A stretch of 64,000 bases of DNA. Source: a virus. Numbering within the stretch: the stretch's first letter is position 1; every line of letters begins with the position of its first letter. The stretch covers positions 19,536 through 83,535 of the IMG/VR virus record IMGVR_UViG_3300019360_000002; one strand, 5' to 3'. Of the stretch, positions 15,373 through 59,827 are shown piece after piece. The notes beneath the pieces are model-generated. The model worked only from the letters and a program-made list of their open reading frames with translations. It did no database searches and was not told the origin of the DNA. The translations under genes were made by a program, and so were the position numbers.

Positions 15373-15379
15373 CTCTGCC

Positions 15380-31533: not shown

Positions 31534-31539
31534 GGCGAA

Positions 31540-31700: not shown

Positions 31701-31763
31701 AGTGGTCATACCACTAATTGATCAGGCGCCAAATGCGTCCGATCAATTAGTGGTCAGACCACT
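31701..31763. repeat. 23-bp inverted repeat with internal palindromes in an AT-rich origin-like gap
   Basis: AGTGGTCATACCACTAATTGATC-N17-GATCAATTAGTGGTCAGACCACT. Confidence 0.85.
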
Positions 31764-34973: not shown

Positions 34974-35014
34974 AAAATTTTTGTTGACAATGCTGCTTGG
35001 CATACGGCTAAATA
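34971..35014 (+). promoter_or_regulatory. Promoter plus operator before the exonuclease-polymerase operon
   Basis: TGAAAAATTTTTGTTG overlapping TTGACA (34984-34989); the -10 element is ambiguous. Confidence 0.5.
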
Positions 35015-35033
35015 ACCCACTGCGTGTGAGATA

Positions 35034-36566: not shown

Positions 36567-36569
36567 GTC

Positions 36570-39124: not shown

Positions 39125-39197
39125 GGATGGCTGTACGTGGCGGCACAAGCCGCTGCGATTTGCGGCTCGCAAGAGCCGATAGATGGAGAGGTGACCG

Positions 39198-39686
39198 ATG
39201 GGGAGATTTTCTGGTATCAAGGATGCGAAGTGGAATCCGGGCGGTGTGTACTTTGAGCCGGGACAGTTCTTGGTTCGGGTGGACACGGTGAAGGTGATCG
39301 AGAGCCGCAAGAAGGAGGAGATGTTCATCGTCGAGAACACCCTGCTCGACAGCGATCATCCCAAGCTCAAGCGCGGGTCGTCGGTGTCCTGGGTGGTGCT
39401 CAGCTCTTGGGACACGTACCTTGGATCGATCAAGCACTTCGTCTCCGTCGCTCAGGAGATCGAGATGGATGATGTCGACGAGTCCGGCATCGAGATGGTG
39501 GTGTCCGAGGACAACCCGTGTTCGGGTACCATCCTCAAGGTCGAGGCCAAAAACGTCCGAAAAAAGGACGGCGGCGACTTCACCAAGTGCGTGTGGTCGT
39601 GGCCCGAGCCCGAGGACTTCGCCAAGATCGGGCTCAAGCCCGACGGCACCAAGCTCGACAAGCCGGTCGAGCAGAAGACGGCGTAG
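39198..39686 (+). CDS. Putative single-stranded DNA-binding protein
   Basis: GAGGTG RBS; beta-rich; sits between the helicase and polymerase genes. Confidence 0.5.
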   Translation: MGRFSGIKDAKWNPGGVYFEPGQFLVRVDTVKVIESRKKEEMFIVENTLLDSDHPKLKRGSSVSWVVLSSWDTYLGSIKHFVSVAQEIEMDDVDESGIEMVVSEDNPCSGTILKVEAKNVRKKDGGDFTKCVWSWPEPEDFAKIGLKPDGTKLDKPVEQKTA

Positions 39687-39694
39687 CAAGTTCT

Positions 39695-39756
39695 GGTCAT
39701 CGGCGGGGGCGGTGTCCGGGGAATGAGCCCTTCGTGCACCGCCCCCGTCGGCGGCC
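39695..39756 (+). terminator. Long GC-rich hairpin (terminator, attenuator or processing site)
   Basis: GGTCATCGGCGGGGGCGGTGT pairs with GCACCGCCCCCGTCGGCGGCC, followed by TTCT. Confidence 0.55.
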
Positions 39757-39792
39757 TTCTACCGTTTTGACTCGCAATTCTGGAGGGCGCGG

Positions 39793-41853: not shown

Positions 41854-41970
41854 GCACGTTATTGCGATTCGCACATCAAGTTGTTCCGGTGCTGAATTAG
41901 CGGCCCGTTACAGAGTCAGCCGCGCCGTAATCAGTAGCGTTTTACTTCGTAAAACCTGGAAGCACGTGCC

Positions 41971-42519
41971 TTAGTTCACGTGCTTGTCGGACAGCCGATC
42001 CATCGACCGCTCCGGGCTTGCGCTTCGCAATTTATGACGGTGCAGGTACCATAGCCCGATGCCGATGGCGTCGAAGATGTTCTCGTTCTGCTTGGCGCTC
42101 TGCACCAGCATCACGTTGTCCATCTCCCTCGGCTTCAGATCCGCCAGGCAGCGGTTCTTGGTCACGATCTTCTTGACCTGGCCCTTCCACTCGGCGGGCA
42201 GGATGAACAGCTTTTCCTTCACCGGAGCCAAGGAGGCGTAGCGCTCCATGATGGCCCCGGCCACCGCCGCCACCGCGATGAGGTCGTTCGGGTCGCCTTT
42301 GGACTTGTCGACGCCGTACACCTGCGGTAGTTCTATGACCACGGCCGCGTACTCGTAGCCGCCTATGAACGCCGCGCAAGAAACATCGACCACCGACTGG
42401 GCCAAGTTCTTCTCGGTGTTCTTGACGAGATGGGCGCGACGCAGGTAGTAGCGGTTCTGGTGGTGGTCCCACACCGCTACCCCCGTGAACCGCACGCCCG
42501 GGTCGATGGTGACGATCAC
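41971..42519 (-). CDS. RuvC-like Holliday junction resolvase
   Basis: IDPG, VVIELPQ, PAEWKG, NIFDAIGIG. Confidence 0.82.
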   Translation of the reverse strand: MIVTIDPGVRFTGVAVWDHHQNRYYLRRAHLVKNTEKNLAQSVVDVSCAAFIGGYEYAAVVIELPQVYGVDKSKGDPNDLIAVAAVAGAIMERYASLAPVKEKLFILPAEWKGQVKKIVTKNRCLADLKPREMDNVMLVQSAKQNENIFDAIGIGLWYLHRHKLRSASPERSMDRLSDKHVN

Positions 42520-45580: not shown

Positions 45581-46993
45581 TTAGGGTGTCCAGGGCGAGT
45601 CAAAGCCGAGCGGCCGGTCGTTGTCGCTGTTGCGGCGGCGCCTTGGGTTTTCGCGCTCACCGCCGGCAGCGCCGAAGATCTCCTCCAGCATCTTGTCCTG
45701 CTTGACTTGATCGGGTGTCTTCAGGCGCTTCGCTGCGTACGTCGCTTCGAGAGCCGGGCGAATGTCACCAACTTCCCACGGGTCGACTTCCAGGAAGGCG
45801 AGAAACTCAAGCGCCTTGAGCACCTCGTCTTTTTTCATGGCGTCGTATCCGCCAACCTTAACCTTGTCTCGGTCCCAGCCTGGCAGTCGGTCGCCCTTGC
45901 CCTTTATCTGGCGAACACGCTCTACGTCTTGGTTGTGCATCTGCGCTTCGATGGTGAAGAGCGGCTTGCCAGACGGCCGGCGCAGGGAGAAGATCTTGGT
46001 ATCGCCTCGCTTGACCGCGCCCGCGTAGCCGTACTGCGTGTCGCCGACGCAGATGCCGAGCGCCGAGCCCTCGGCCTTCAGCTCCGACGAAAGTAGATCG
46101 ACCACGTAGAAGCCGTCCTTGAAGCGGTAGACGATTCGCTCCTCCGGCGGTGTCGCAGCCTCCTCGATGAGTTCCTCGCCGAGGGTTTCACGCGCCGCCG
46201 CCTCCACCTTGTCCCAGTTCACATCGGCCACGAAGTAGTAGCCGATGTCTCCGTAGTCGATTTGAAACTCGTACTTGGGGAACAGGTCGTCGAATTTGAT
46301 GCGGAGGTACGTATTATTGTTGATCTGCTTGACCGCTTCTTCGATCTCGTCCGCGAACATAGGATCGGTAAGGTTCGCCAGGTCCCTTTTGTCGAAGTAG
46401 ATGCCGCCGTGGTCGGAGACGCTTTCCCTGAAGATCCCCTCGCGGCTGTATTCGTTGCCGCTAATGTGGAAATCGTAGTTGTCGGCATCGCGAAGCGCTT
46501 CGTTGATGGCGCCTCGAACCTCGTCTGGAGACGGCGACTCGCCACCCTCGGGCATGAGCTTGTCGGTGAGCTGCTCGACTTCTTCTTGGATGCCTCGGTG
46601 ATCGATGATCTCGTCTTGTTCGCCGAGCCATTGGGCGAAGTAATCGGAGCCACTCTCGATCCACTGCTGTTTGGTGATTTCGTCCGGTTCGAGCAACCGC
46701 TTCTCGCGCTCGACAAAAGCGTCGACCAGCTCCTTCACTCGGGCCAGGCTTTCTGGGTCGTTTTCCAGGATGCATTCCTGGTCGTCGGCGTCGAGAGAGT
46801 TCCACTCCTCCTCGTTGAAGGCGTCGCGAGGCAGAGCCCGAACTTGTGCTCTGCTCATCCCCTCCACGTAGGCACCGCCCACGACCAGGGGTCCCGACCG
46901 CACCGCCGTCATCTTGGGCTTGCCCTCTTCGTCGCGCTCGAACAAGTCCGGGTGCTCACCGATCTTGGGGTTCACGCACTTGTTCTTGCGCAT
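45581..46993 (-). CDS. Acidic protein with a C-terminal PcfJ-like domain
   Basis: ELKAEGSALGICVG...IFSLR...KPLFTIE...QIKGKGDRLP; basic RENPRRRR tail; ATG sits inside a TTGCG-ATG-CGCAA site. Confidence 0.65.
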   Translation of the reverse strand: MRKNKCVNPKIGEHPDLFERDEEGKPKMTAVRSGPLVVGGAYVEGMSRAQVRALPRDAFNEEEWNSLDADDQECILENDPESLARVKELVDAFVEREKRLLEPDEITKQQWIESGSDYFAQWLGEQDEIIDHRGIQEEVEQLTDKLMPEGGESPSPDEVRGAINEALRDADNYDFHISGNEYSREGIFRESVSDHGGIYFDKRDLANLTDPMFADEIEEAVKQINNNTYLRIKFDDLFPKYEFQIDYGDIGYYFVADVNWDKVEAAARETLGEELIEEAATPPEERIVYRFKDGFYVVDLLSSELKAEGSALGICVGDTQYGYAGAVKRGDTKIFSLRRPSGKPLFTIEAQMHNQDVERVRQIKGKGDRLPGWDRDKVKVGGYDAMKKDEVLKALEFLAFLEVDPWEVGDIRPALEATYAAKRLKTPDQVKQDKMLEEIFGAAGGERENPRRRRNSDNDRPLGFDSPWTP

Positions 46994-47001
46994 CGCAATT
47001 C

Positions 47002-47049
47002 CTCTCTGAAGGCAAGCAGCTCTCTGAAGGCAAGCAGCTCTCTGAAGGC
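47002..47049. repeat. 18-bp tandem repeat, about 2.7 copies
   Basis: CTCTCTGAAGGCAAGCAG x2 plus CTCTCTGAAGGC. Confidence 0.9.
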
Positions 47050-47054
47050 CGATC

Positions 47055-47428
47055 CTACCGCTTCTTGGTGAGCGCTCGGTAGGCCAAGATGCCGCCCAGG
47101 ACCAAGGCCACCTTGCCGAGCGGCGACCTGACGAATTTCTTGATGTCGGCTTCCATGCCGGTGCTGGATCCACCGCTCCCGGAGTAGTTGGCTCCCAACG
47201 CCATGCGCCTCACGACGCTGGCGCCGGCCCGACGGGCGAGGCACGGGTTGTCGTAGGTGCGGCCGTCCGAGGCGAGCACCGGGTCGAAGCCGGTGCACGG
47301 GTCGGCGACCACGAACACGTCGGGCGACGGGTAGTTGTACCAGGGACCGCCGCCGTACCAGGGGCCTCCGCCTCCCCGCAACCGCCTCCGCCATGGATGT
47401 CCGTGACCGTGGTGACCGTGTGGGGCAT
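47055..47428 (-). CDS. Small membrane-anchored protein with a Kazal-like motif; apparent frameshift just after the ATG
   Basis: PCTGFDPVLASDGRTYDNPC; C-terminal TM plus KKR; AAGGAG-ATG at 47428 is out of frame by one base. Confidence 0.55.
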
Positions 47429-47443
47429 GGTGATCTCCTTTAT

Positions 47444-47755
47444 TTACACAGGCCCGTAGGCGTCAGGGCCGCTGCCAGGTTCTGTGAAGAACCAGTAAAA
47501 CCGGTTTTGGTCCTCGAACAGAAAGTCGTCTTCGTATCCGACACCCTGTTCTTGCGCACGCTTAAGCGCGTGCCTGTCGTTCGCAACCGCGTATACAGGA
47601 AGAAACTCTTCGATGTGAATGATGGCGTAGCTGTCTTGTTCAGACAGGCTGATTTCATGGCCCCCGTTTGCGCCGAGGTGGGCTAGCAGCTCTCCGAGCG
47701 CGATGAACGCGGCTCCTGAACCGCGTACCTCTTTTTTGTATAGACTGATATCCAT
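47444..47755 (-). CDS. Hypothetical protein
   Basis: AGGA RBS. Confidence 0.55.
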   Translation of the reverse strand: MDISLYKKEVRGSGAAFIALGELLAHLGANGGHEISLSEQDSYAIIHIEEFLPVYAVANDRHALKRAQEQGVGYEDDFLFEDQNRFYWFFTEPGSGPDAYGPV

Positions 47756-47759
47756 GATT

Positions 47760-48356
47760 TCATCCTTTCAAGACGTAGTAGAGCCCGCCCAGGATGAGGG
47801 CGTAGCCTACGACGCCGATGCCAGTTTCTGTGAAGATGGGGATGTTGTTCTGTACGGCGCGCTCACGCACACCAGGCCGCCACTGGTCAACAGGCACGAG
47901 TGGTTCGGCCGGGATAGGGATGAAGCCGAACTGCTTCGACGGGAAGCCGCCGACCGGAATGCCGAAGCGGCCGGTGTACTCGGAGAGCCTGTCGGGCTTG
48001 ATCTTGAGGTCGAAGTGCAGGTGCGCTGCTGACTGCTTGATACCCGAGGCGCCAGACTCGGCGATCTGCTGGCCGGCGCGCACGATGTCCCCTACCTTCA
48101 CCTGGCGAACCGACAGGTGGAGGTAGCGCGACAAGATGCCGTTATCGTGTTGGATCGCGATGATGTCGCCCGCCGGATCGGGCAGGGCATTCTTCGAGGT
48201 GACGACCTTGCCATCGCCGACGGCGAAAATAGGTGTGCCGACGCTGGCGCGAAAGTCTAGACCTTCGTGTTTCTCACCTTCGCCACGATACGGGCGAGGG
48301 TCCCCCCACCCGCTCGCCACGAAACTCGGTCTCGGAACCGGGCTGACGAACGTCAT
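47760..48356 (-). CDS. M23 family peptidoglycan endopeptidase with a C-terminal TM anchor
   Basis: HEGLDF, YLHLS, AHLHF; terminal IGVVGYALILGGLYYVL. Confidence 0.9.
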   Translation of the reverse strand: MTFVSPVPRPSFVASGWGDPRPYRGEGEKHEGLDFRASVGTPIFAVGDGKVVTSKNALPDPAGDIIAIQHDNGILSRYLHLSVRQVKVGDIVRAGQQIAESGASGIKQSAAHLHFDLKIKPDRLSEYTGRFGIPVGGFPSKQFGFIPIPAEPLVPVDQWRPGVRERAVQNNIPIFTETGIGVVGYALILGGLYYVLKG

Positions 48357-48624
48357 GGTGCACCTTGGTCGCAGCGAAGGCTGCCGTAAGTACGAGGACG
48401 AGGAGGATCAGCACTGCGGTTGCGAGGCGCAAGGCGGTCCTGTCCGGCGGCCGGTAGGTGGTGGGTGCACCGTCGAGCCAGGTGGTCTCGGACATGTGGA
48501 AAGCGAGCGTCCGCGAGAGGATCTGCTCGCGGGTCTTCTTGGATGCCTTGCGTTCCTCGTACGACAGGTTTTCGGACATGATTGCCCTCCAGATTGGTGG
48601 TGCGGTGTTGATTATGCAGCACGG

Positions 48625-49371
48625 TTATCCCTCGTCCCGGACTTCCATGCGGTAGAACACGCCGGGCGGTGCACTCGGCCCGGTGAGAAACAGGAGCAGT
48701 ACGTCGAAGCTGTCGTCGAACGGGCGGTTGAACACGAAGGAGCTGGCCGCCGCTACTGCGACCACACCCGGGGTCAGGTCGGTATCCTTCGGCCCAGATC
48801 CGCCTGCGATGTTGAGCGAACGGCCAACCACGCGCACGCCGATCGCCGCCGCCCCTGGGTTCGCCACGTTGACGAACAGCGTCTTGCGCCCGTAGCAGTA
48901 GATGAAGGCGATGAGGCTTTCGCCGGCCGGTACGCCGATATTGTCCTGGGCGAACTTCGGCACGCGCCGAGTCGCTCTTGTCACATGTGGCTTGAGCGCA
49001 AACCAGATGTCGACGAACGGCGCAGGGTCGGCAGGGGCGCCCAGAAGAGCGGTGGTGTCGATCGGCCTGCCGCCTTGGATGATGAGGCGCGTAGGCTGGC
49101 CGTTCGGCGGCGGCAGTCGGAAGGTGATGGGCGCCCAAGGCGCGAGCTGGGCGCTGTTCAGCTCCAGCGTGGAGACAACAGGCGTAGGCCAGCTCACACT
49201 GAACAGATCCAGGTCGGACATGCCGCCGACCATGATGCCGGCCACACCGCTCGGCAATTCGAAGAGCGCAGGGAAGCGCACGTCGTCGATGTCGCCCGTG
49301 AGGCGATACACATCGTCGCCGCGCTGGATGGCCTGGCTGATTGAATCACCGTTGTTCGGGTTGATACCCAT
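48625..49371 (-). CDS. Beta-rich virion-like protein
   Basis: GAGGTG RBS; alternating hydrophobic beta pattern. Confidence 0.55.
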   Translation of the reverse strand: MGINPNNGDSISQAIQRGDDVYRLTGDIDDVRFPALFELPSGVAGIMVGGMSDLDLFSVSWPTPVVSTLELNSAQLAPWAPITFRLPPPNGQPTRLIIQGGRPIDTTALLGAPADPAPFVDIWFALKPHVTRATRRVPKFAQDNIGVPAGESLIAFIYCYGRKTLFVNVANPGAAAIGVRVVGRSLNIAGGSGPKDTDLTPGVVAVAAASSFVFNRPFDDSFDVLLLFLTGPSAPPGVFYRMEVRDEG

Positions 49372-49374
49372 GGG

Positions 49375-49794
49375 TCACCTCCGCCCCAAAACACGAGCAA
49401 GCATGGAGGAGATTGTCGGCGCCACGGCCCTCACCCCGTTTAGGATCTCCAGGAGCCACGGGTACGGCTCGACCTGGACCGACACCCGCTGAAGCGAGTC
49501 GGATGCGATGTAGAGACGCGTGAGCGGCACCATGACGATCTTCACATCTTCGTCCGCCGGCAGGAGGCGGCCCTTGCCGCTGCCCACTGGCATCAGCTCT
49601 TCCTGGTTGCCGACAGAGACCGGCCCCGGGCTTTCGAGTCGCAAGGTGATGAGCGACCAGTTGGGCAAGGACAGGAGCAGATCGGTCTGTCCTGGCGTGG
49701 TGAACACCGTGTAGATGTTGGTGGCGATACCGGTGTACAGATCGGGGCCGGTCGTGCCTGGCTGAATCGGAGTCTTCGTCGGAATCGGACCCAT
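49375..49794 (-). CDS. Beta-rich virion-like protein
   Basis: GGAGGT RBS; small jelly-roll-like pattern. Confidence 0.55.
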   Translation of the reverse strand: MGPIPTKTPIQPGTTGPDLYTGIATNIYTVFTTPGQTDLLLSLPNWSLITLRLESPGPVSVGNQEELMPVGSGKGRLLPADEDVKIVMVPLTRLYIASDSLQRVSVQVEPYPWLLEILNGVRAVAPTISSMLARVLGRR

Positions 49795-49796
49795 AG

Positions 49797-50465
49797 CTAC
49801 CTCCAGATGAGGAGCGCCAGGCCGGCTGCGGCGATGAGGCCGAATCCGAAGCCTGGCGAGCGCGGCAGCACCACGCCCTTGGGGAGCGCGTAGGTGATGC
49901 CGGCTGGGGCCGGTACCATGACCGGCACCCCTACGGTTGGGAAGGCGATCTGAGCGCCTTCATTCCACAAGGTTTCCACAGAGGTAGTGCGAGCCAGGAC
50001 TTTGCCAGCAGGATAACCGGACACGGTGACGTTCGGGTGTGCCTTTACGTACGCAAGCAGGGTTGGAAAGTGCGCCGAGCCGACGAGTGCTACCAGCTTG
50101 GTGACGGCGCCGATGCCGAGCGCGAATACGAGCCGCGCCATCTTCCACTGCTCGGGTGAGCCAGGCACAATGACCGGATAGCGAACCGCAATTCTGGCTG
50201 CCTCGATGTTGTACTCCAGGCCGGCGAGAAAGATGTTGCCCTCTGGGTCCTTGCGGACCTCGGGGTTTACGCCTACGGTGCGCGGGAAGCTTTCTGTAAT
50301 TTGGTAGTAACCAGCCTCTCCTAGACGAGGATCACCAGTGACCATGCGACCAGAGGATTCGTGGTCGGCAATGGCCGCAAAAAAGCCGACTGGCATGCCG
50401 CCACGATAGCGGTCAAGCTCGACACGATGCTGATCGTAGAACTTCTTGGCGCCAGAAACCGACAC
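49797..50465 (-). CDS. Lytic transglycosylase-like protein with a C-terminal TM anchor
   Basis: AIADHESSG (catalytic E), GYYQI, DPEGNI; terminal FGLIAAAGLALLIWR. Confidence 0.7.
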   Translation of the reverse strand: MSVSGAKKFYDQHRVELDRYRGGMPVGFFAAIADHESSGRMVTGDPRLGEAGYYQITESFPRTVGVNPEVRKDPEGNIFLAGLEYNIEAARIAVRYPVIVPGSPEQWKMARLVFALGIGAVTKLVALVGSAHFPTLLAYVKAHPNVTVSGYPAGKVLARTTSVETLWNEGAQIAFPTVGVPVMVPAPAGITYALPKGVVLPRSPGFGFGLIAAAGLALLIWR

Positions 50466-50497
50466 GCACGTTCGCTTCTACCGGGGAGAAGCCCAGT

Positions 50498-51088
50498 TTA
50501 GGCCTTCGGCTTGCACCTTGCAAGCAGCACGTCGCGGGCGGCATTCAAGCGCTTCATCGACTCTGTGGAGCCGCCCTTGTCCGAGTGGTAGATCTGGGCG
50601 AGCTGTTTGTAGCGTGCCTTGACCAGCTCCACGGTGAGCTTGGTGGCCGGTTCGAAGCCCAGGACCACCATGGGGTCCTCCACGGGCACCCGGCGAGGCG
50701 GAGGCGGCCCAGGAGGTACCTGGGGCCGCTTGGGCGGGACACCCTTTCGAGCGGCGTTCGCCTTCTCGGCGGCGGCCCTGGTACGGTCCCAGGCCTCTTT
50801 CACGGCCTCCCTGCGCTCGCCAGGGGCCTTGGGCGTCGATACCCGGTCCACGAGGTGGGCGAAGCCGTCTACGAAGCCCACAACGCGACCAAGCGCGCCT
50901 TGGACCCTGGGGTTATCGAACACGTCGTCGAGGAACTCGTCGACGATCTCGGCGCCCTCGGAGACCTCATCCTCCTCATCGCCATAGACCTCAGCCTCGT
51001 GCTCCTCGCAGAGCGGTGGGTTGCCTTCACCGACGCGGGTGCACTGACGACCGCGAACGAGAAAGGTGCACTTGCGCGAATTGGGCAT
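50498..51088 (-). CDS. J-domain protein (HSD variant) with an N-terminal Zn-finger-like motif
   Basis: DPMVVLG...VKARYKQLAQIYHSDKGGSTESMKRLNAARDVL; C..C..C..H at the N-terminus. Confidence 0.75.
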   Translation of the reverse strand: MPNSRKCTFLVRGRQCTRVGEGNPPLCEEHEAEVYGDEEDEVSEGAEIVDEFLDDVFDNPRVQGALGRVVGFVDGFAHLVDRVSTPKAPGERREAVKEAWDRTRAAAEKANAARKGVPPKRPQVPPGPPPPRRVPVEDPMVVLGFEPATKLTVELVKARYKQLAQIYHSDKGGSTESMKRLNAARDVLLARCKPKA

Positions 51089-51089
51089 G

Positions 51090-51467
51090 CTACGGAGCCG
51101 GCGGTAGGGTAGGAGGACGAGGCGTTACGTGGTTCTCTCGCTTCTTGTTCACCTTGGCGTCCGTCTTGTGACTCACAACCTCCCTCGGCCAGTTCTGCCG
51201 GATGCCAGCTCTGTCCACGCGGTCCATGGCGTAGTCGGTGGCGATCTCGTGCTTCTTCTCGGCCGAGTGCGGCGCCTTGCCCAGCTTGATGAGCACGCGC
51301 GCCTTCTCTTCTGCGAGCGCTACGCCGTCCTCCACCCTGAGGACCGAGCCGATCACCACCGTCATCGTGTTGGGCGGTTCGATAGAGCTGCCGCCGTCAG
51401 CGAAGGCAAGCGCCGTCCAGACCATGAGCACGCCGACGAACAGGCACAAGGACAAGACCCATTTCAT
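51090..51467 (-). CDS. Possible holin
   Basis: Hydrophobic N-terminus; V..AEE....SAEK...A..Y pattern reminiscent of LL-H-type holins; lysis context. Confidence 0.4.
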   Translation of the reverse strand: MKWVLSLCLFVGVLMVWTALAFADGGSSIEPPNTMTVVIGSVLRVEDGVALAEEKARVLIKLGKAPHSAEKKHEIATDYAMDRVDRAGIRQNWPREVVSHKTDAKVNKKRENHVTPRPPTLPPAP

Positions 51468-51531
51468 GAGAGAACCCTCGCTACCGGATAGCCAGAGGAT
51501 ATCACAGGTCACCGGTAGGGCGCCTTGATCG

Positions 51532-52125
51532 GTCGGTTTCGTCCCTTTCCGCTGGGGTCAACATCCTCGCCCCGGGCTATGCGCTCGATGATGTCGGAAC
51601 TTCTTCCCCGTTCCGCTGGGGTTGTCACCTGCTTGTTGGGACGCATGCGAATCCTCCCGTCTGCGTGTCGGAACTTCTTCCCCGTTCCGCGGTGGTTGTC
51701 ACGCGGCCAAGCAGCCTCATGCGCTTCCGGTCCACGTAGTCGGAACTTCTTCCCCGTTCCGCGGGGGTTGTCACGGCGCCGATGTTTGCCACGGCTGTCG
51801 GAACCTCTTCCCCGTTCCGCGGGGGTTGTCATCCGCTGCCTGCCACGAGTCACCTCTACAGCTTGACGGTCGGAACTTCTTCCCCGTTCCGCGGGGGTTG
51901 TCACCCGGTTGTCGTTGATGTAGATCTGGCACTTCAAGATCAGGTCGGAACTTATTCCCCGTTCCGCTGGGGTTGTCACAGGACTGTCCGTCATCATTGA
52001 TGGATGGTTTCCGTCGTCGGAACTTCTTCCCCGTTCCGCGGGGGTTGTCACCTGCGAACCCTTGCTCGCGTGGGCGTGCTACCGACCGAGTCGGAACTTC
52101 TTCCCCGTTCCGCGGGGGTTGTCAC
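51532..52125 (-). CRISPR. CRISPR array: 8 full 36-bp repeats plus one degenerate terminal repeat, 8 spacers
   Basis: Plus-strand repeat GTCGGAACTTCTTCCCCGTTCCGCGGGGGTTGTCAC at 51593, 51667, 51739, 51797, 51869, 51944, 52016, 52090; degenerate copy at ~51532-51562; unique spacers of ~30, 38, 36, 22, 36, 39, 36, 38 nt; decay at the left end implies minus-strand transcription. Confidence 0.97.
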
Positions 52126-53717
52126 GGCGCATCCTGATTCGCCTTGGCGGGTGCGGAGTTAATGCGGCGCTTGCGAGCGCCATCGCGCATCCGCTCCTGC
52201 CGCGCCGATAAGCCTGCGGATCCATTACCGGCGTCCGGGTCCAGCACGTGCGCGCTCGCGCTCGCTAGCAAGTTCGTGCCTGCCTGTTCGTCCTGGTCGG
52301 TCGCGACGCCGCAGCTCTGGCAGGTGAGCATGAGCTGGCGGCGCTCATCGTCCTTCCAGTCGTTTACATGCCCGCACTGGCAGCAGCGCAGTGTGGTGTC
52401 GGCGGCGGGGGCGTCGAGCACGATACAGCCGTGCGTGGCCTGGCGCAGCGTGGACACCAGCTCGCCGGGCGCGGCCCAGCGCTGGAGGATGCGCTCGTGG
52501 TGACGAGACGGCGCCTCGCCGTCGCGCTTCTCTCCGAACGTCGTCAGGCCGCTGTCATCCTCGACGGCGATCACCTCGTAGCGCCGTGTCCAGGTTGCGG
52601 CGAGTTGCCGGAATTGCTCCTGACGGATGTGCTGTGCGCGCCTTCGGTGCTCGGCCGCCTGGCGCACCGCCGAGCGCCACATGAGCGCGGCGGCAGGGGC
52701 AGTGCCCTCCGTCTTGAGTCTTGCAACCAGCGAAAGGAGGCGCTCTCGCTTGCGAGGCCACGCTATCTCGGGGTGATCGGCGCGCAGCGCGTTCTGGAGG
52801 TCATCGGCTTCGCCGTCGAGCCCAGCGGCGCGGGTGTAGAGCGTTTCGACGCGCGGATCGAGCCGCACCTCCTCCTGTCGTCCCGCCGAGTCGACGAGGT
52901 AGGCGAGGCGTACGCCGCCGTCGGGAAGCCTGCGCCAGCCCACGTCGAGGCCGGCACGGTCGCGCGATCCAGTTGACGCCCGATCCAGTCCCCGATCCGC
53001 TGGGGTCTCGCACACAAACTGCACGGTCCAGCGCACGAGTGGACCAACGGGCACACGCTTCGCCACCACCCACTTCACTACCGCGCCCTCGGCGATCGGC
53101 CGGTGGTAGCGGATCTGGAAGCGCGCGAAGATGGGTTCGCGGCCTTCAGACCCGATACGCAGGAGGGCGTCGGCCAAACAGCGACCTGCGCCACCGCCAT
53201 ACTTCTTGTCGCTGACCGCGAGGCGTACGCGCGTGTCTTCTCCGAGCAACTCCGTTACGGAGGCCCCGTTCTGGAGCTGGACGGCGATCAGGCCGCTGCG
53301 GTCCCAGCGACGAAAGGACGGACGCGGGCTCCGGCTCGCCTGCTCAGCCGCCTTTTCGACTTGGAGGTACGTTCCCCAGTACACACCACACACGGCACGC
53401 GCTCGCCGGATGATGTCTCGGTAGCGTTCGTTGATGGTCATGAGCACACTCTTCGCCGGTCCCGCTGCGGCGCGCTTTCGCGCTTCACGAACCATCTTCC
53501 AGGCGGCGTCTTTGTCGGCATGAGGCGCGTCGGGCGGGAGACTGAGCGCCGTGGCCCGTTCGTCGACGCTGTGCTCATCGAGAGTGTTAGAGACGGCACC
53601 GAAGCGAGCGCGCGCCATCTCCACGAGGAGGTTGTAGTAGCGGTGCGCCCGCCACAACTGGTCCTCGACATCACGCTCGTGATCCATGAGCCGCGCGCCG
53701 TACTTGTACACGATCAT
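52122..53717 (-). CDS. cas12m: Compact type V CRISPR effector, Cas12m (V-U1/C2c4)-like, 531 aa
   Basis: GAGGTG RBS; IVYKYG...QLWRAHRYYNLLV, GVYWGTY, FRRWDRSGLIAVQLQ, LRIGS...YHRPI; RuvC-I GLDVGWR, RuvC-II IAVEDD, WAAPGEL, Zn finger CCQCG/CQSCG, RuvC-III DQDEQAGTNL; abuts the array. Confidence 0.82.
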   Translation of the reverse strand: MIVYKYGARLMDHERDVEDQLWRAHRYYNLLVEMARARFGAVSNTLDEHSVDERATALSLPPDAPHADKDAAWKMVREARKRAAAGPAKSVLMTINERYRDIIRRARAVCGVYWGTYLQVEKAAEQASRSPRPSFRRWDRSGLIAVQLQNGASVTELLGEDTRVRLAVSDKKYGGGAGRCLADALLRIGSEGREPIFARFQIRYHRPIAEGAVVKWVVAKRVPVGPLVRWTVQFVCETPADRGLDRASTGSRDRAGLDVGWRRLPDGGVRLAYLVDSAGRQEEVRLDPRVETLYTRAAGLDGEADDLQNALRADHPEIAWPRKRERLLSLVARLKTEGTAPAAALMWRSAVRQAAEHRRRAQHIRQEQFRQLAATWTRRYEVIAVEDDSGLTTFGEKRDGEAPSRHHERILQRWAAPGELVSTLRQATHGCIVLDAPAADTTLRCCQCGHVNDWKDDERRQLMLTCQSCGVATDQDEQAGTNLLASASAHVLDPDAGNGSAGLSARQERMRDGARKRRINSAPAKANQDAP

Positions 53718-53847
53718 CGCTACACCTCGTCCTTCCGAAAGGATTGCAGCACAGTACGGGCCTTTCTAGGAACGCGTTTTCGCATCCAGTAGTTGTTCGC
53801 AGTAAAAGCACGCCAGCAGATCGTGTTCGGCAGCCTTCTTTACACGC

Positions 53848-54201
53848 TCACGCATCCGCGATCTTCTTACCCGCGATCAGCTTCATCCACGGGTTCTCCT
53901 CCGAGGCGTCGATGAGGGCGTCGAGGCAGCGGTTGAAGGTATCCTCGGGCACGTCGAGCTGGGTCATGAGGTAGTGGGCGAGGAAGGCCACGATGACCGT
54001 ACGCTCGAACACGTCGCCGGTTGCGAGCGACAAGCGGGCGACCAGCTCATCGAAAAACGGGCCGTGTTCCTCGATGATGGCCGTCATCTGCTTGCGAAGC
54101 TCGGTCTGCGCGGCGTGGAACGCCTCGTGCTCCTCTTCGGTGTGGTACCCGCCGCAGTCTTCGCACGCGGGTGGGATCTTGGTGGTCGGATCAGGCATCA
54201 C
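53848..54201 (-). CDS. Hypothetical protein
   Basis: AGGAG RBS; CEDC motif. Confidence 0.6.
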   Translation of the reverse strand: MMPDPTTKIPPACEDCGGYHTEEEHEAFHAAQTELRKQMTAIIEEHGPFFDELVARLSLATGDVFERTVIVAFLAHYLMTQLDVPEDTFNRCLDALIDASEENPWMKLIAGKKIADA

Positions 54202-54342
54202 TTCTTCTCCTTGTAGTTGGGACAGCCAGCCTTGGCGCCGGCCGCGACGGCTTGGGAACGAAACCGTTCTCGTCTTCCTGCTCGGTGTCGGTGATGCAGT
54301 GCGGGCAAACCACGTCGCCGCCGTTGGCGTAGCAAATCACGC

Positions 54343-54729
54343 TCATGTTTGTGTCTCCTCTCCTAGATCCTTCCACAGTTTCTTGCCCAGCCGAAATGCT
54401 GCCGTGTTGCCGTTCGCGCACGCCTCGTCGCCGTCGAAGCCTTGCAGGTACGAGATCACCCAGTCGAGGTCTACGCCGAGCGCCTCGGCGACCATCTCTT
54501 CGAGAAGGAACTCGCTCGTGAGCACGGCGGTGGATTCCTTCTCGGAGAGCAGGCACGCACACACCGGGCACACCTTCGGCGTCTTGGCCATCTTGCCGGC
54601 GGTCTTGGTGCAGCCGTCGTAGGTGCCGCAGGCGCCCTGGCACAGGCGCTTGCCCTGCTTGCCGACCTTCTTGATTGCGGCTCGCAAGTAATTGTCGGCG
54701 GCGAGGTCGGAGTAGCTCGCTTCGCTCAC
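54343..54729 (-). CDS. Zn-finger hypothetical protein
   Basis: CQGAC...CPVC; GTGA/ATGA coupling. Confidence 0.6.
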   Translation of the reverse strand: MSEASYSDLAADNYLRAAIKKVGKQGKRLCQGACGTYDGCTKTAGKMAKTPKVCPVCACLLSEKESTAVLTSEFLLEEMVAEALGVDLDWVISYLQGFDGDEACANGNTAAFRLGKKLWKDLGEETQT

Positions 54730-55003
54730 GGCAACCTGAGCTTGTGCTTGTTTGCGAACCGGCCCCAGCGGCGCGTGTTGAACAGCTCGTCGAGCCGTTG
54801 CTGGGCCTTGGCTTCTTTGGCTTTGCTCACTTTGGAGCCCGGCGAGCGCTCCATGAGGTCGTAGAGGGCCTTGGCCGCGTCCAAGGCGCCGCTGTTCACG
54901 GCGCGACCGTGGGCAGAACCCGGTTCCACCGTCGGTTCAGGCGCGATGTTGTAGGCCCCGAAGAGAGGGTCTTCGAACGTCCTCCGCTTGGGCAGGTTGA
55001 TTT

Positions 55004-55339
55004 TCATGCCCCGTTCAGCGCCAGCGACGCCGCCTCCAGGAGCATGCGCTGGGCCTGTCCAGCGGACCGACACACCGTGTCGTTCCACTCGACGGTGTCG
55101 AGGCCGGCACCGTTTCCACCCATATCCGTGACCACCACGGCGTCGGTGATCAGCAAGCACCTGCCGGTGCGCGATCCGATCTTGCTGGCTTGATCGGGAG
55201 ACTCGTCGCACGCCATGCGAATTACGAACGAGACGCAGTGACGCCCTTTCCCGTCAGTCCCGACGTTTCGGCACCAGCCGGTTGCCGACAGGATTGTGGC
55301 TGCCTTGTCGAGCAGCCGTGCTTCCATTTTTTTCTTCAT
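55004..55339 (-). CDS. Conserved small phage protein (DUF6197-like)
   Basis: LLDKAATIL...GWC...GRHC...EWND..RS......LLEAA; TGGAGGACGAC RBS. Confidence 0.6.
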   Translation of the reverse strand: MKKKMEARLLDKAATILSATGWCRNVGTDGKGRHCVSFVIRMACDESPDQASKIGSRTGRCLLITDAVVVTDMGGNGAGLDTVEWNDTVCRSAGQAQRMLLEAASLALNGA

Positions 55340-55470
55340 CGTCGTCCTCCAGATGCCCAGAACGCCAAAGGGGGCCGGCACTTGTGCGCCGACCCCCTTG
55401 GACGATCACAGTACGGGTGTTGTGCTCGCGTGAGCATAGCCTGCGCTCGCTCCGCTCGCGTGGGCCACGC

Positions 55471-56457
55471 CTACTCGGCGGCCTTCTTGCCCTTCTTGCC
55501 CTTCTTGCCGCCCTCGCCGGCCGCCCACTCCTTCGCCTTGGCCGCCGCCTCCTTCGCCTTCTCCTTGGCGTTGGCCTCGGCCGCCTTCACGAAGTCCTTC
55601 CAGTCCGAGCCCATGCGGCCGAGCGCGATGGAGCCCTGGGCGAAGCGCAGGGTGTCGAACACGCCCTGCACGTAGTCGGTGCGCTTGACCTCCTTCTCGT
55701 CGGTCTCGTCGACGATCTGGACCATGGCCTTCAGGATCTTCGTCCCCGGGCGGTCCGACTTGCCCGCCTTCGCCTTGGCGGCCTTGCGTGCCTTCGACTT
55801 GCCCGACCGGCCGCCCGAAGCGATCGCCTTGAGCGCCTCGTCGACGCCCTCCTCCTGCGTGTCGAAGTCGTACTTGCCGGGCTTGTCGTCCTCGCCCTCG
55901 ACCCACTTGGCGGTCTTGGCCAGGGTTTCCACCGTGTCATCGGCGAGCTTGCCCGACTTCCACGCCTTCTTGAGCGCCGGGCCGCACTTCTCCAGGGCGT
56001 CGAGCTTGCGCGACACCCAGGTCTCCGACTTGTGGAGCGCCTTGGCGATGGTCTTCTGGTTGTCGCCCATGAGCTTCAGCTCGGCGCACTGCACCGCGAT
56101 CTCGTACGAGGAGAGCGCGTCGCGCAGGATGTTGTCGGCGAGGGCGTTGTAGCGCGCGTCCTTGAGCGTGTCGCCGGAGACGAAGTGGCACGGCACGCCC
56201 TGGGAGAAGCCGTTGGCGCGGCCTTCCTCGATGAGCAGGGTGATCGCGGCCTCGCGGCGGAAGCCGCCCACGAGCACCATGATCTCCTCGCCGTCCTTCT
56301 GCGTCTTCCACACCTGGAGCGGGTTCAGAAGCCCCCGCGCCTCGATGTCGTCGGCGAGGTTCTTGATGTCCTCCAGCTTCTCGCGCGGGTTCTTGAAGCC
56401 GACCTCCTCGCCAGGGGTCAGCTCGTCGAGCTTGATGGTGTCGTAGTTTGAATCCAT
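55471..56457 (-). CDS. ParB/KorB-like CTPase-HTH DNA-binding protein
   Basis: NPR...LADDIEARGLLNPLQV...LVGGFRREAA; DNILRDALSSYE; HTH QKTIAKALHKSETWVSRKL; Lys/Ala-rich tail. Confidence 0.85.
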   Translation of the reverse strand: MDSNYDTIKLDELTPGEEVGFKNPREKLEDIKNLADDIEARGLLNPLQVWKTQKDGEEIMVLVGGFRREAAITLLIEEGRANGFSQGVPCHFVSGDTLKDARYNALADNILRDALSSYEIAVQCAELKLMGDNQKTIAKALHKSETWVSRKLDALEKCGPALKKAWKSGKLADDTVETLAKTAKWVEGEDDKPGKYDFDTQEEGVDEALKAIASGGRSGKSKARKAAKAKAGKSDRPGTKILKAMVQIVDETDEKEVKRTDYVQGVFDTLRFAQGSIALGRMGSDWKDFVKAAEANAKEKAKEAAAKAKEWAAGEGGKKGKKGKKAAE

Positions 56458-56492
56458 GTCACGTCCTCCGTTGGTTGCGGTTCGCAATCGGG

Positions 56493-56801
56493 CTAGCTCG
56501 GCAGAAGCGCCAGCTTGCCCACATCGATCCAGTCGAAGCGGAACCTCTCCGATCCGGCCTGCACCTTGATGATCTCGTCCAGCTTGTCGAACACCGTCTC
56601 CATGTCCTTCTTCGCGAGGGCCTTCCACTCCGCTTCGGTCTTGCCCTGCACGGTGACAGGGACGCCCAGCTCCTTGCCGGCGCGGAAAAAGGCGGCGAGC
56701 GGGGTGGTGTCGCTCCGCTTGTAGTAGGAGCGGGTGAGCTTCACGTACCTCTTGGCGACATCAGACACGGCGGCACCCTTGGGTGCCCTGGCAGTTTTCA
56801 T
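56493..56801 (-). CDS. Hypothetical protein
   Basis: GTGGAGGACGAC RBS before ATG 56801. Confidence 0.6.
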   Translation of the reverse strand: MKTARAPKGAAVSDVAKRYVKLTRSYYKRSDTTPLAAFFRAGKELGVPVTVQGKTEAEWKALAKKDMETVFDKLDEIIKVQAGSERFRFDWIDVGKLALLPS

Positions 56802-57443
56802 CTCGTCGTCCTCCACTCACGGGTGTACCTGAGAGACTTGCGGCTTGCAACTCTTTTTTGCCTTGTTCTTGAAGATTCTGATGCGTGTGTGCCCCCTGGC
56901 CGTTTTGCCTTGTGCAAGGTTTCTTTCGCGACGTTTCTTGTGGTTAGTGCGGCTGTTTCGTGCCTTGGCGACGAGGTACGCCTCGTAGTCCATGGTGCCT
57001 ACCTGGCTCGAAAGCGTCCGACACTGAAAGCGTTTCCCTTCGGGGGCGCTGGCATCGAACCTGATGCCGAGATTCCCGCAGGAGGCGAAGATCATGTCCC
57101 CGACGGAGAACACCCTCAGGTCGTCGAGCGCGGCGGCCAGCACTACTTGCTCTCGACCTTGGTGGTGATGCGTGCGAGCATCCCCGCCGCTTCCTTGTGC
57201 TTGGGGACATCGGTCCAGCACCCGGCAGGCACAAGCCCACGCCACCTGGGCAGACCGGTGACCTTGCTCTTTGGGAGTTTTTGTCTCTTGCCCATGTCGT
57301 CCTCCAGTGATGGCCGAGCACCCCGCGCTGTCTGTCTTGAGCATCACCGCCCGAGAGTTGCTCCGAGTCGCTGTGCTCGGAGTGCGGCGATTCCACTTGC
57401 GGCGAAGAAGACAGACAGCGCGCGGCACTCGGCCGCCGTACCG

Positions 57444-58517
57444 CTACGCCGCCTTCTTGGTCACGTCGTAGGCGACGGACATCATGTCGAAGCGCTTGTC
57501 GGCGTCCGACTCCTTGCCGGCCAGCCAGGTGAGCGCGTTCGCCATGCGCCACATAGAGTTGCCCGGCGGCAGGTTCTCCACGTCGGCACCGTTATAGCAA
57601 TCGATCACCTCCTTGGCCTTGCCGGCGCCGAGCTGCTTCTTCAGGAATTCCTGCATCGACTTCGGCTCCACCTCCTTGTCGTGCGCCGCCTTGATGAGGT
57701 TCATGCGCTCCTGGATCTTGTGGGGCGAGAGGTACCCCTTGATGGCGTCGTGAACCATGCTCGCGCTCCGGTCGGTGTCGAGCTTGTAGGTCCTTGACGA
57801 CCAGATCTCCTCGTCCTCCAGGCGACCGCCCAGGTGGACCTGGCGAAGCGTCTCCTCGCCGGTCATGCCGTTCGCGCACTTGACGCGCAGGATGTACTCC
57901 TTGAGCGTGTGCGCGCCGTTGCCGAAGTCGGAGTTCTGCCACGAGTACCCCAGGCACATGAACTCGCCGGGGATCGGCTCGTAGATGGTGGGCAGGAGGA
58001 TCTGGATCGACACCCGGGTGTCGTTGAAGATGCCGTCCGTCGGCAAGGCGCCGACCGCCTGGCACGCCTTGGCGATGTTGTCCACGATGGGCCGCGAGTC
58101 GAGTCGGCGGAACTTGTTCGAGAGCAGCGCCCGCATCTCGCTCGCGTACGAGCGCGTGAGGTACTTGGTGGTCTTCTGGTGCGCGAACACCGTCCGCAGG
58201 TTGTGGGCGAGCAGCTCGTTGCCCCAGGCGTCATCCGGTTGGTTGCGAGTCGCCAGCTCCCTGGCGTACTCGCCGGGGATGCCGGCGCGCTCCATCACCT
58301 GGCCCCAGGCGTTTCGGTGGAGCCGCTCGCGCTCCACCGACTCCGGGACGCGGAAGAAGATGCCGCTCTCGTCGGCCTCGAAGTTCAGAGCGGTCGCCTT
58401 GACGATTCGGTCCTGGGGAACCTCGTTCTGGATCTTCTCCATCACCAAGATGGCGTTCTTGCGCCCCCTGTCGATGATGCGCTGCAACACTGCTTTCATT
58501 TCGGCCTTGGTGCTCAT
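57444..58517 (-). CDS. DUF932-like phage protein
   Basis: RALLSNKFRRLD...QNSDFGNGA...LRVKCANGM...RQVHLG; own promoter. Confidence 0.7.
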   Translation of the reverse strand: MSTKAEMKAVLQRIIDRGRKNAILVMEKIQNEVPQDRIVKATALNFEADESGIFFRVPESVERERLHRNAWGQVMERAGIPGEYARELATRNQPDDAWGNELLAHNLRTVFAHQKTTKYLTRSYASEMRALLSNKFRRLDSRPIVDNIAKACQAVGALPTDGIFNDTRVSIQILLPTIYEPIPGEFMCLGYSWQNSDFGNGAHTLKEYILRVKCANGMTGEETLRQVHLGGRLEDEEIWSSRTYKLDTDRSASMVHDAIKGYLSPHKIQERMNLIKAAHDKEVEPKSMQEFLKKQLGAGKAKEVIDCYNGADVENLPPGNSMWRMANALTWLAGKESDADKRFDMMSVAYDVTKKAA

Positions 58518-58551
58518 GTCGTCCTCCTGGTTGGTGCCTGATCCGTTGTTG

Positions 58552-58593
58552 ATACTACTTGCGAGTCACAAGCTAGGCAAGAAAAATTTGTTG
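58552..58593 (-). promoter_or_regulatory. Promoter carrying both motif classes
   Basis: TTGCCT-17-TAGTAT; TTGCGAGTCACAA in the spacer (58559-58571); CAAGAAAAATTTGTTG at 58578-58593. Confidence 0.65.
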
Positions 58594-58648
58594 GCCGCGT
58601 GTCGATCATCGCTTCGAGGTGGCACTGCCAAGGTAAATAATGTCGTGC

Positions 58649-59584
58649 TCATGTTGCCTCGCCGTACACCCAGTCAACGTCATCGCCGAACCGGTCCATC
58701 GCCCACTTCTCGATCCAGTCGGCGGCGATGCGCGCCATCGCGTGGTTGGCGGGCGTGTAGCCCGGGCGGATGGCGAGGAACCATCGCTCGGCGAGACGAT
58801 CTGGCCGCTTCGGCAGCCCGCTGAGATCGACGGTGGCGCAACCTCGCGCCTTCGACAGCGTGCCGACTAGGCAGGCGCACTCGCCGTCGTAGACGGAGCC
58901 GTCGACTTTTCCTTCGTGCAGCGCGGCGAGCAGGGCCGGCGCCTCGTCGGGCGCGAGGTCGAGCACCTGCCACAGATCCTCGCGGACGCCCTCCAGGTTC
59001 GCGCCCTCCAGGTTCGCGCCCTCCAGGTTCGCGCCCTCCAGGTTCGCGCCCTCCAGGTGCGCGCCCTCCAGGTTCGCGCCCTCCAGGTGCGCGCCCTCCA
59101 GGTTCGCGCCCTCCAGGTGCGCGCCCTCCAGGTTCGCGCCCCGCAGGTTCGCGCCCAGCAGGTCCGCGCCCCGCAGGTTCGCGCCCCACAGGTTCACGTC
59201 CTGCAGGTCCGCGCCCGACAGGTTCACGTCCTGCAGGTCCGCGCCCGACAGGTTCGCGCCCTCCAGGTTCGCGCCCTCCAGGTTCGCGCCCGACAGGTTC
59301 GCGCCCGACAGGTTCGCGCCCGACAGGTTCGCGTCCTGCAGGTCCGCGCCCGACAGGTCCGCGCCCGACAGGTCCGCGCCCGACAGGTTCGCGCCCGACA
59401 GGTCCGCGCCCGACAGGTTCGCGCCCCGCAGGTTCGCGCCCCACAGGTCCGCGCCCGACAGGTTCGCGCCCTTCCCGCGCGCTTTCTCGACGGCGCTGCG
59501 CAGCGGATTCGGGTCGTCGTCGGCGGCCTCGTAGGAGTAGAGGCACGCGTTGTCCCAGAGCCGGCGAATCTTAATCTTGGCCAT
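58649..59584 (-). CDS. Pentapeptide repeat protein
   Basis: About 32 A(N/D/H)L(S/E/R/W)G-type pentads encoded by a 15-bp tandem repeat; conserved C-terminal domain DGSVYDGECACLVGT. Confidence 0.92.
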   Translation of the reverse strand: MAKIKIRRLWDNACLYSYEAADDDPNPLRSAVEKARGKGANLSGADLWGANLRGANLSGADLSGANLSGADLSGADLSGADLQDANLSGANLSGANLSGANLEGANLEGANLSGADLQDVNLSGADLQDVNLWGANLRGADLLGANLRGANLEGAHLEGANLEGAHLEGANLEGAHLEGANLEGANLEGANLEGANLEGVREDLWQVLDLAPDEAPALLAALHEGKVDGSVYDGECACLVGTLSKARGCATVDLSGLPKRPDRLAERWFLAIRPGYTPANHAMARIAADWIEKWAMDRFGDDVDWVYGEAT

Positions 59585-59616
59585 GTTGTCCTCCTGGTTG
59601 GTGTTTGATCCGTTGC

Positions 59617-59823
59617 TTAGGGCGTGAAACACATCCACTGGGGCCGCGTGTCGATCATCGCTTCGAGGTGGCACTGGGCGGGCGCCTCGCACGTCCGCTT
59701 GGGCAGGCACAACGAGGCGTCCGCTTCGCATCCCGATAGGCAGCACGGAGCACCCGGCACGCCGCACACCTCGGCGTCGTCACCGCAGCCGATCAAGAAA
59801 ATGGCGAGGAACAAAAAACGCAT
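59617..59823 (-). CDS. Small Cys-rich lipoprotein
   Basis: Signal MRFLFLAIFLIG-C; several more Cys. Confidence 0.6.
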   Translation of the reverse strand: MRFLFLAIFLIGCGDDAEVCGVPGAPCCLSGCEADASLCLPKRTCEAPAQCHLEAMIDTRPQWMCFTP

Positions 59824-59827
59824 GAGA

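Follow-up and report, generated by a model that had tools for sequence, protein, structure and literature searches.

Eight variants of Cas12m, the effector of type V-M CRISPR systems, have been assayed, four of them with the acidic RuvC triad D-E-D, and cleavage of double-stranded DNA (dsDNA) was reported for none (PMC11013384). The same report describes purified D-E-D MsCas12m as showing neither target nor collateral cleavage, gives Cas12m guides as free of trans-activating CRISPR RNA (tracrRNA), credits two additions of Cas12m, the Roof and the RuvC insertion, with supporting tight DNA binding, and notes that adaptation genes are typically absent from V-U1/V-M loci. Mutating the H-D-D triad of Cas12m2 back to D-E-D did not regain cutting according to PMC10442227, which divides Cas12m into four clades (triads HEK/HQK, HDD, DED/NED and DED/DND/NED), two of them containing D-E-D, and raises the possibility that the D-E-D clades 3 and 4 hydrolyse DNA; a PNAS 2023 paper speaks of 'gradual inactivation' inside V-M (PMC10691335). 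Virus-borne Cas12m is already in print, in a 2024 review and in a September 2026 preprint that terms MvCas12m, from myxophage MV-1, the first phage Cas12m (10.64898/2026.09.14.751636); a landfill virome paper, in the text available, mentions Cas12m only as a reference clade (PMC12607003). Here we describe a cas12m gene and its CRISPR array in the IMG/VR virus record IMGVR_UViG_3300019360_000002, within a stretch of 64,000 nucleotides (nt) that we call the window.

The source record, 83,535 bp in length, is a complete virus genome: CheckV puts its completeness at 100%, and it carries direct terminal repeats; the window corresponds to its bases 19536-83535. Our analysis indicates that the locus is a genuine and probably functional virus-encoded type V-M system, consisting of an effector gene and an array. 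Its most likely role is RNA-guided binding of DNA, by which competing elements or host genes would be silenced. Its parts, from the upstream end, are as follows.

53718..53847, minus strand: upstream spacer of 130 nt with a GAGG ribosome-binding site, the presumed promoter site for a cas12m-array transcript
52122..53717, minus strand: cas12m, compact type V-M effector; open reading frame (ORF) of 531 amino acids (aa) with an ATG start, called from PADLOC, PDB and family-profile matches
51593..52125, minus strand: CRISPR array of eight 36-nt repeats and seven spacers, from repeat detection and covariance model R1
51566..51592, minus strand: eighth, short spacer of about 26 nt, between repeat 8 and the decayed repeat 9
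51532..51565, minus strand: decayed ninth (terminal) repeat at the array end far from cas12m, from local alignment

The locus resembles the V-M systems characterised from bacteria and plasmids (MmCas12m2, structures 8hhl and 8hio; GoCas12m, 8pm4; MsCas12m; PmCas12m; and 23vw). The effector has the same WED-REC-RuvC-zinc finger sequence architecture, the repeat is 36 nt long with the same predicted pseudoknot handle and register, the array lies downstream on the gene strand, and there are no adaptation genes and no anti-repeat. It differs in its shorter effector (531 aa, where the solved proteins have 577-614 aa), in being at most about 30% identical to them, in a stop codon that lies inside repeat 1, and in being encoded by a complete virus genome. 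MvCas12m, as described in its preprint, is likewise virus-borne, with eight spacers, a D-E-D triad, no cas1, cas2 or cas4 and no protospacers found, but it is 610 aa long (D305/E463/D555) and sits in a prophage-like element in a metagenome-assembled genome (MAG). That description sets it apart from the protein studied here, because the open frame of the present gene permits at most 547 aa.

Effector identity

The initial annotation had proposed a Cas12m-like protein of 531 aa on the strength of its motifs. The ORF is present, every listed motif was found in it, and three kinds of match agree on the family. PADLOC's model for Cas12m, there under its older name Cas12u1, is matched at E 4.5e-44, and the match spans positions 65-531 of the 533 in the profile. 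Among PDB sequences the best match is 23vw_A (E 1.3e-26) and the second UnCas12m4a (4.7e-12), with TnpB and Cas12f chains at E 5.4e-04 or weaker. Searching exhaustively with phmmer, we obtained 2340 cluster representatives at E<=1e-3, of which 350 reach E<=1e-30; P0012, 45% identical to the effector, is the nearest. A family profile was built from alignment A1, which holds the effector and 125 of the best 150 representatives (126 sequences). It matches five Cas12m PDB sequences, all over their full length (23vw, E 9.3e-170; 8hhl, 1.6e-92; 8hio, 1.8e-92; 8pm4, 5.5e-86; 23vu, 1.5e-73), whereas the next matches, to TnpB-like, Cas12f, Cas12g and CasPhi sequences from E 3.5e-16, cover the C-terminal RuvC/TNB part only. 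Placement by profile, which had been suggested as a check against Cas12m, Cas12f and TnpB, thus separates Cas12m from both of the others. An identity as Cas12f (V-F) was rejected because the similarity to Cas12f chains is C-terminal and not full-length, lying at about 430-566 of the profile (E 2.6e-10 to 4.4e-05). Together, these sequence comparisons give good support for assigning the 531-aa protein to Cas12m (type V-M).

In Pfam the effector matches Cas12f1-like_TNB alone (E 7.1e-06, residues 427-482). Two conserved elements outside the catalytic triad could be placed on the gene.

53103..53105 (H205) and 53100-53102 (R206), minus strand: HR pair of the motif YHRPI, a putative crRNA contact, aligned with His269/Arg270 of Cas12m2
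52311..52385, minus strand: zinc finger / TNB, C445-x2-C448 ... C466-x2-C469, Pfam Cas12f1-like_TNB

His269 and Arg270 of Cas12m2 are reported to contact the CRISPR RNA (crRNA) (PMC10442227); the profile string 'HRplP' aligns with 'HRWLP' of Cas12m2, and R206 is nearly invariant in the family. The four zinc-finger columns hold cysteine in 117 to 124 of the 126 sequences of A1. The ESM Atlas model of the effector has a predicted local distance difference test score (pLDDT) of 0.74. Clusters near it in the Atlas are mostly viral, and the closest (TM 0.81; 61 members) is 87% viral among the 15 members with known phylum.

Cas1 (PF01867), Cas2 (PF09827) and Cas4 (PF01930) have no match at E<=1 in the whole 83,535-bp record, and cas12m is present there in one copy. 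The absence of cas1 and cas2, first stated for 64 kb, thus extends to the complete virus and to Cas4 as well; it had been taken as a special feature, and given what PMC11013384 reports of V-U1/V-M loci, it is typical.

Guide RNA and the gene-array junction

The array had been annotated as 36-bp repeats beside the effector gene, and eight copies indeed lie at 51593-52125 on the gene strand. Four of the eight are exact, two carry one substitution and two carry two. From cas12m outward the spacers measure 38, 36, 39, 36, 22, 36 and 38 nt, and all eight spacers, the short terminal one included, differ from one another. The decayed ninth repeat is missed by model R1; it aligns with a score of 29, whereas 500 shuffles average 15.4 (standard deviation 3.0) and reach 28 at most. 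Since it follows the 26-nt spacer, it accounts for the start of the annotated locus at 51532. The orientation of the array, co-transcription with cas12m and a decayed repeat at the trailer end are mutually consistent.

A small sequence identity was seen at the other end of the array. The five bases before repeat 1 (52126-52130) are the same as the last five of the 22-nt spacer (51775-51796), GCGCC on the minus strand, which produces two identical 42-nt stretches and may be a trace of spacer-shortening recombination. A longer duplication around GCGCC was looked for by eye and dropped, none being convincing.

Repeats of related arrays were taken from beside homologues in IMG/VR and in genome contigs. 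The 26 repeats, read on the gene strand and including the present one, are 36-37 nt long, and all end in GAC except one, which ends in GAG. Over this set we tested a pseudoknot of four pairs (positions 8-11 with 20-23) and six pairs (14-19 with 29-34). Its cells are paired in 88.5% of cases; shuffles give 66.4 +/- 1.9%, and none of the 500 comes as high. Both partners are changed in 63 cells where 20.6 +/- 3.5 would be expected, and nine of the ten pairs show such change. When the partner was slid by one to three columns, pairing was 34-48%; the outermost pair is weak, being unpaired in 16 of 26 cells. Counted from the spacer, positions -28..-26 pair with -17..-15 and -23..-18 with -8..-3; in the crRNA of PmCas12m, the reported register is -28..-26 with -15..-17 and -23..-20 with -3..-6 (10.64898/2026.03.26.714355). 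This covariation, in a test of the pseudoknot part of the handle, supports the repeat as a Cas12m crRNA pseudoknot handle in the same register as PmCas12m. By our count, five of the six substitutions in the repeats fall at unpaired positions of the pseudoknot.

Other searches with the repeat gave results as follows. Covariance model R1, which represents the hairpin, recovers the eight repeats, all on the minus strand (E 1.4e-05 to 1.4e-03), and has no other hit below E 0.1 in the whole genome. The next best hit, a candidate orphan repeat at window positions 9069-9106 (minus strand; 15.3 bits, E 0.12) lies inside GC-rich coding DNA and was discarded as probably due to chance. Single-strand folding of the repeat by minimum free energy gave z scores of -0.16 and -0.29 on the two strands, pseudoknots being outside that model. 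No reverse-complement copy of the repeat with up to eight mismatches exists anywhere in the genome, in line with the tracrRNA-free guides reported for Cas12m. The exact repeat has no match in IMG/VR and metagenome contigs, scans that possibly did not include its own record.

The gene runs into the array without a gap: its stop codon TGA is formed by nucleotides 2-4 of repeat 1 (52125-52090). Among 25 related loci with a placeable ORF end and a full-length repeat, the first repeat lies within 25 nt past the stop codon or overlaps it in 16, with overlap in four; the count leaves out six array loci, five with an incomplete repeat consensus and L009, whose ORF end lies beyond the array. Because 16 of 25 loci are this close or overlapping, the 'leaderless' layout is a habit of the family and not peculiar to this virus. 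The junction at locus L052, in a virus that we call G004, is identical, its stop TAG occupying repeat nucleotides 2-4. A scan for promoters and terminators yielded no promoter-like site and three terminator-like sites, against 2.4 expected.

We propose that the system works in four steps. The gene and the array would be transcribed as one RNA, a single transcript being suggested by the zero-length junction, with the pre-crRNA serving as the 3' untranslated region of the cas12m mRNA. Every repeat would then fold into the pseudoknot handle that is supported by covariation and matches the PmCas12m register. Cas12m would bind this handle and, by analogy with characterised Cas12m, trim the RNA to the handle and a guide of about 17-20 nt. 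Finally, the complex would bind guide-matched dsDNA flanked by a protospacer adjacent motif (PAM) and block transcription or replication without cutting. As the eight spacers match nothing in their own virus, they are most likely directed at competing phages or plasmids, or else at host genes. With neither Cas1-Cas2 nor a leader, the virus would not acquire spacers by its own means.

Spacers were compared with several sequence sets. In their own genome they have no match, either over the full length with up to 25% mismatches or over the first 20 nt with up to three mismatches, and there are none in the loci collected around homologues (556,736 bases) or in virus G004. The initial annotation had suggested a BLAST of the spacers against outside sequences, but when the array was run by blastn against 50,697 phage records and 72,556 plasmids, all matches were at chance level, IMG/VR and metagenomes not having been searched with spacers. 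The best phage match is to Microbacterium phages at E 0.2 (array query positions 530-565), and the plasmid matches, at E 2-7, are mostly to an IS66 region. In the opposite direction, 181 spacers of related arrays gave 13 hits in this genome, against 22 for shuffled controls. Searching genome contigs for relatives of the effector found only seven, all in MAGs and spread over six different phyla-level groups.

Triad, compact architecture and competing explanations

The catalytic residues and the two helical additions of the effector map to the gene as follows.

53376..53597, minus strand: REC helical 'Roof' region, R39 to W114; 74 aa against a median of 106
52944..52946, minus strand: codon of D258, RuvC-I (GLDVGWR); the column is D in 109 of 126 relatives
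52581..52931, minus strand: RuvC helical insertion; 117 aa against a median of 144, with only 1 of 125 relatives as short
52560..52562, minus strand: codon of E386, RuvC-II (IAVEDD); the column is E in 106 of 126 relatives
52290..52292, minus strand: codon of D476, RuvC-III (DQDEQ); the column is D in 125 of 126 relatives

The three acids singled out as canonical in the initial annotation do occupy true RuvC columns. In a profile-to-chain alignment, D258 lines up with the histidine of the H-D-D triad in both Cas12m2 and GoCas12m, E386 with D485 of Cas12m2 and D497 of GoCas12m, and D476 with D590 of GoCas12m (triad H322/D497/D590; residue numbers as given in PMC11013384 and PMC10442227). The combination D258-E386-D476 fits the D-E-D clades named in PMC10442227. 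The annotation had also treated the intact triad as something special, and this does not hold. D-E-D is the commonest state in the family, found in 102 of the 126 nearest cluster representatives (A1); a second alignment has it in 56 of 62 representatives and in 17 viral homologues out of 28, the other 11 having lost the triad. Because D-E-D is so common, and because the D-E-D members of Cas12m that have been tested do not cut, the intact triad is weak evidence of nuclease activity.

The protein is compact for its family: relatives have a median length of 586 aa, and its shortness is matched by only six of 125. The Roof region, about 32 aa under the median, is matched or undercut in length by 11 of 125 relatives, and 13 of its 74 residues are K or R; the RuvC insertion is about 27 aa under the median. 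In a FastTree phylogeny (the only tree program used; 93 rows, no outgroup, partial matches and duplicate contigs left out) the effector pairs with P0012 at support 100, and a five-row clade adds P0018, P0027 and P0062 at support 99. All members of this clade are 512-546 aa long, and its four members in alignment A2 (the effector, P0012, P0018 and P0027) all have D-E-D. The other four members come from contigs of 2.5-20.8 kb.

A binder that does not cut is the most likely reading, because all Cas12m proteins tested so far behave in this way, D-E-D types included. The Cas12m of virus G004, with the triad D-K-D, would be unable to use RuvC catalysis, and this favours a binding role. Several observations weigh against the reading of the locus as a functional silencing Cas12m system. 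The PADLOC model PDLC01692, labelled Cas12f, scores nearly equal to Cas12u1 (E 5.1e-43), apparently as a V-U1-like profile that carries a V-F label, and NCBIfam gives only guided_TnpB, under its cut-off (41 bits against 100; E 1.5e-10). D-E-D is kept in the effector's own clade at only 33-45% identity, which argues for selection on the acidic site, and the role of this site in D-E-D Cas12m is unexplained in the available text of the papers cited. As both the Roof and the RuvC insertion are shortened, and PMC11013384 links the two to tight binding, silencing by binding may be weaker or different here. The search for spacer targets came up empty, so that activity and purpose are presumptive; the spacers of 22 and 26 nt are short, and half of the eight repeats carry substitutions. 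No sigma-70 consensus site occurs in 50900-54400, and the promoter upstream of cas12m is a presumed one.

That the system is of Cas12m type but its compact D-E-D protein is an RNA-guided nuclease or nickase seems to us unlikely, though it is the alternative with most to be said for it. Three RuvC acids and four zinc-finger cysteines are intact, the triad is kept in all four aligned members of the compact clade, and the very insertions that are tied to binding-based silencing are trimmed; DNA hydrolysis has also been suggested as possible for the D-E-D clades 3 and 4 (PMC10442227). Set against this are the published assays summarised above, in which four of four D-E-D variants gave no dsDNA cleavage, purified MsCas12m cleaved neither target nor collateral DNA (PMC11013384) and the D-E-D back-mutant of Cas12m2 did not cut (PMC10442227). 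In addition, the nearest solved structure, 23vw_A, has a D-E-D triad and was deposited as a 'DNA-binding protein', and 11 of 28 viral relatives have lost the triad.

A more far-reaching proposal, which we regard as doubtful, combines two claims: that the compact D-E-D clade keeps catalysis, which would make it the first nicking or cutting Cas12m, and that crRNA maturation additionally makes a non-stop mRNA and so limits synthesis of the effector. For PmCas12m, cleavage of the pre-crRNA is reported to follow repeat nucleotides 2-3 (10.64898/2026.03.26.714355). A cut of that type at repeat 1 would fall within the stop codon and would therefore yield a non-stop cas12m mRNA.

Less probable again is a decaying relic, in which effector and array came from another virus or a plasmid and have since lost their function. 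Substitutions in four of eight repeats, the decayed ninth repeat and the spacers of 22 and 26 nt could be read in this way, as could the lack of a protospacer in any set searched, an exact repeat found on no other IMG/VR or metagenome contig, and the virus of locus L013, which retains only a 157-aa N-terminal fragment of a homologue. Yet the 531-aa frame is open and keeps the nearly invariant residues of the family, five of the six repeat substitutions spare the pairs of the pseudoknot, and model R1 scores all eight repeats at E 1.4e-03 or better. The 22-nt spacer can still serve, because published guides need only about 17-20 nt (PMC11013384; PmCas12m preprint).

An IS200/IS605- or IS607-type TnpB with an omega-RNA, carried as a transposon passenger, is hardly tenable and already contradicted: it shares with our protein the RuvC/TNB core and a guide RNA module that abuts or overlaps the 3' end of the ORF, and it draws matches to guided_TnpB and IS607_TnpB (E 1.1e-04), both far under cut-offs, and to PHROG 'transposase' families (E 3.7e-10), but TnpB similarity is C-terminal only against full-length Cas12m matches, the eight repeats carry eight different spacers where TnpB has one guide, related loci have arrays of up to 21 repeats, and the gene is present once, with no Y1 transposase (Y1_Tnp) match at E<=1 across the whole record and no other sign of mobility, transposon ends not having been searched for explicitly. 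By gene copy number, the Y1 search and the differing spacers, the TnpB transposon that the initial annotation had named as fatal to its proposal was not borne out.

Cas12m in other viruses and the surrounding genome

Two IMG/VR searches gave 12 and 45 loci, on about 45 distinct contigs, with relatives at 23-39% identity. A k-mer finder saw arrays at 35 of 53 locus rows, downstream on the gene strand as here, and these viral cassettes share with ours the order of gene then same-strand array and 36-nt repeats ending in GAC. Cas1 was found in none of the five viral records checked, three of which are complete with terminal repeats. Encoding by a virus, presented at first as exceptional, is thus found on many contigs and is already in print. 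Nor do the data show a single 'viral branch': the 28 viral homologues from IMG/VR are scattered over the tree.

Virus G004 was compared with the present one as a whole. It is 81,505 bp long with terminal repeats, 100% complete and 56% GC (63% here), and it shares 11 ORF pairs with our virus at 26-54% identity. G004 46563-61932 (loci L066-L070) and window 27697-42519 form a colinear module of primase, exonuclease, helicase and DNA polymerase at 30-54% identity. Its Cas12m (L052) has 511 aa, is 26% identical to ours and 46-47% identical to those of L037 and L043, belongs to a different clade and lies at a non-syntenic position. Two distantly related viruses thus have unlike Cas12m cassettes that share one and the same junction. 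Elsewhere among the cas12m contigs, tblastx for synteny gave noisy short hits, and blastp for L013, L006 and L011 matched cas12m alone.

The partial homologue at L013 (locus positions 4001-4474; record IMGVR_UViG_3300021178_000012, 83,579 bp) is a 157-aa ORF that corresponds to residues 1-130 of our effector at 39% identity (E 1.7e-16). No array was detected there, and the flanks share no other protein with our virus at E<1e-6. The ORF is either what remains of a truncated gene or an N-terminal piece that stands alone.

Around the locus, the window encodes a phage-type replication set of DNA polymerase (PHROG 17, E 3.8e-61), primase, helicase, exonuclease and a ParB-like protein. Ten ORFs neighbouring cas12m gave a weak DnaJ domain, DUF6197, a ParB/KorB-like protein and PHROGs of unknown function, and none matched a lysis family, so the placement between a lysis module and the early genes given in the initial annotation finds no support here. 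No tRNA gene was found in the virus genome, and Rfam has no match within 50500-54500. A PHROG scan of ten large ORFs, from the window (1-64000) and record bases 1-19535, found no terminase, portal, capsid or tail family; its sole structural match was a weak 'virion structural protein' (E 4.8e-08).

Two genes follow the array on the minus strand. The start of the first, 51090-51512, is most likely an internal ATG near 51468; the product from there has a signal-peptide-like N-terminus (MKWVLSLCLFVGVLMVWTALAFA...) and no family match, and the gene would share the array transcript if no terminator lies between. The second, 50498-51088, encodes a 196-aa protein with a J-domain-like C-terminus (Pfam DnaJ, E 0.0055, under cut-off), in which HSD replaces HPD. 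The MV-1 preprint lists a DnaJ too (10.64898/2026.09.14.751636).

The cassette is a further example of a known system type, and knowledge of that type is unchanged by it. What stands out is the pair of shortened DNA-contacting insertions, the stop codon in repeat 1 and the distant virus with an identical junction. The virus adds a complete genome to a growing set of Cas12m-carrying viruses, and the array that abuts its gene is shown to be a family-wide layout. With D-E-D and trimmed insertions, the effector is a natural test case for why D-E-D Cas12m fail to cut and, at 531 aa, for the minimal size of a programmable DNA binder. TnpB reportedly makes omega-RNA by processing its own mRNA (PMC10278001), and the stop codon within the repeat offers a simple, testable model of self-limiting expression akin to that of TnpB and its omega-RNA.

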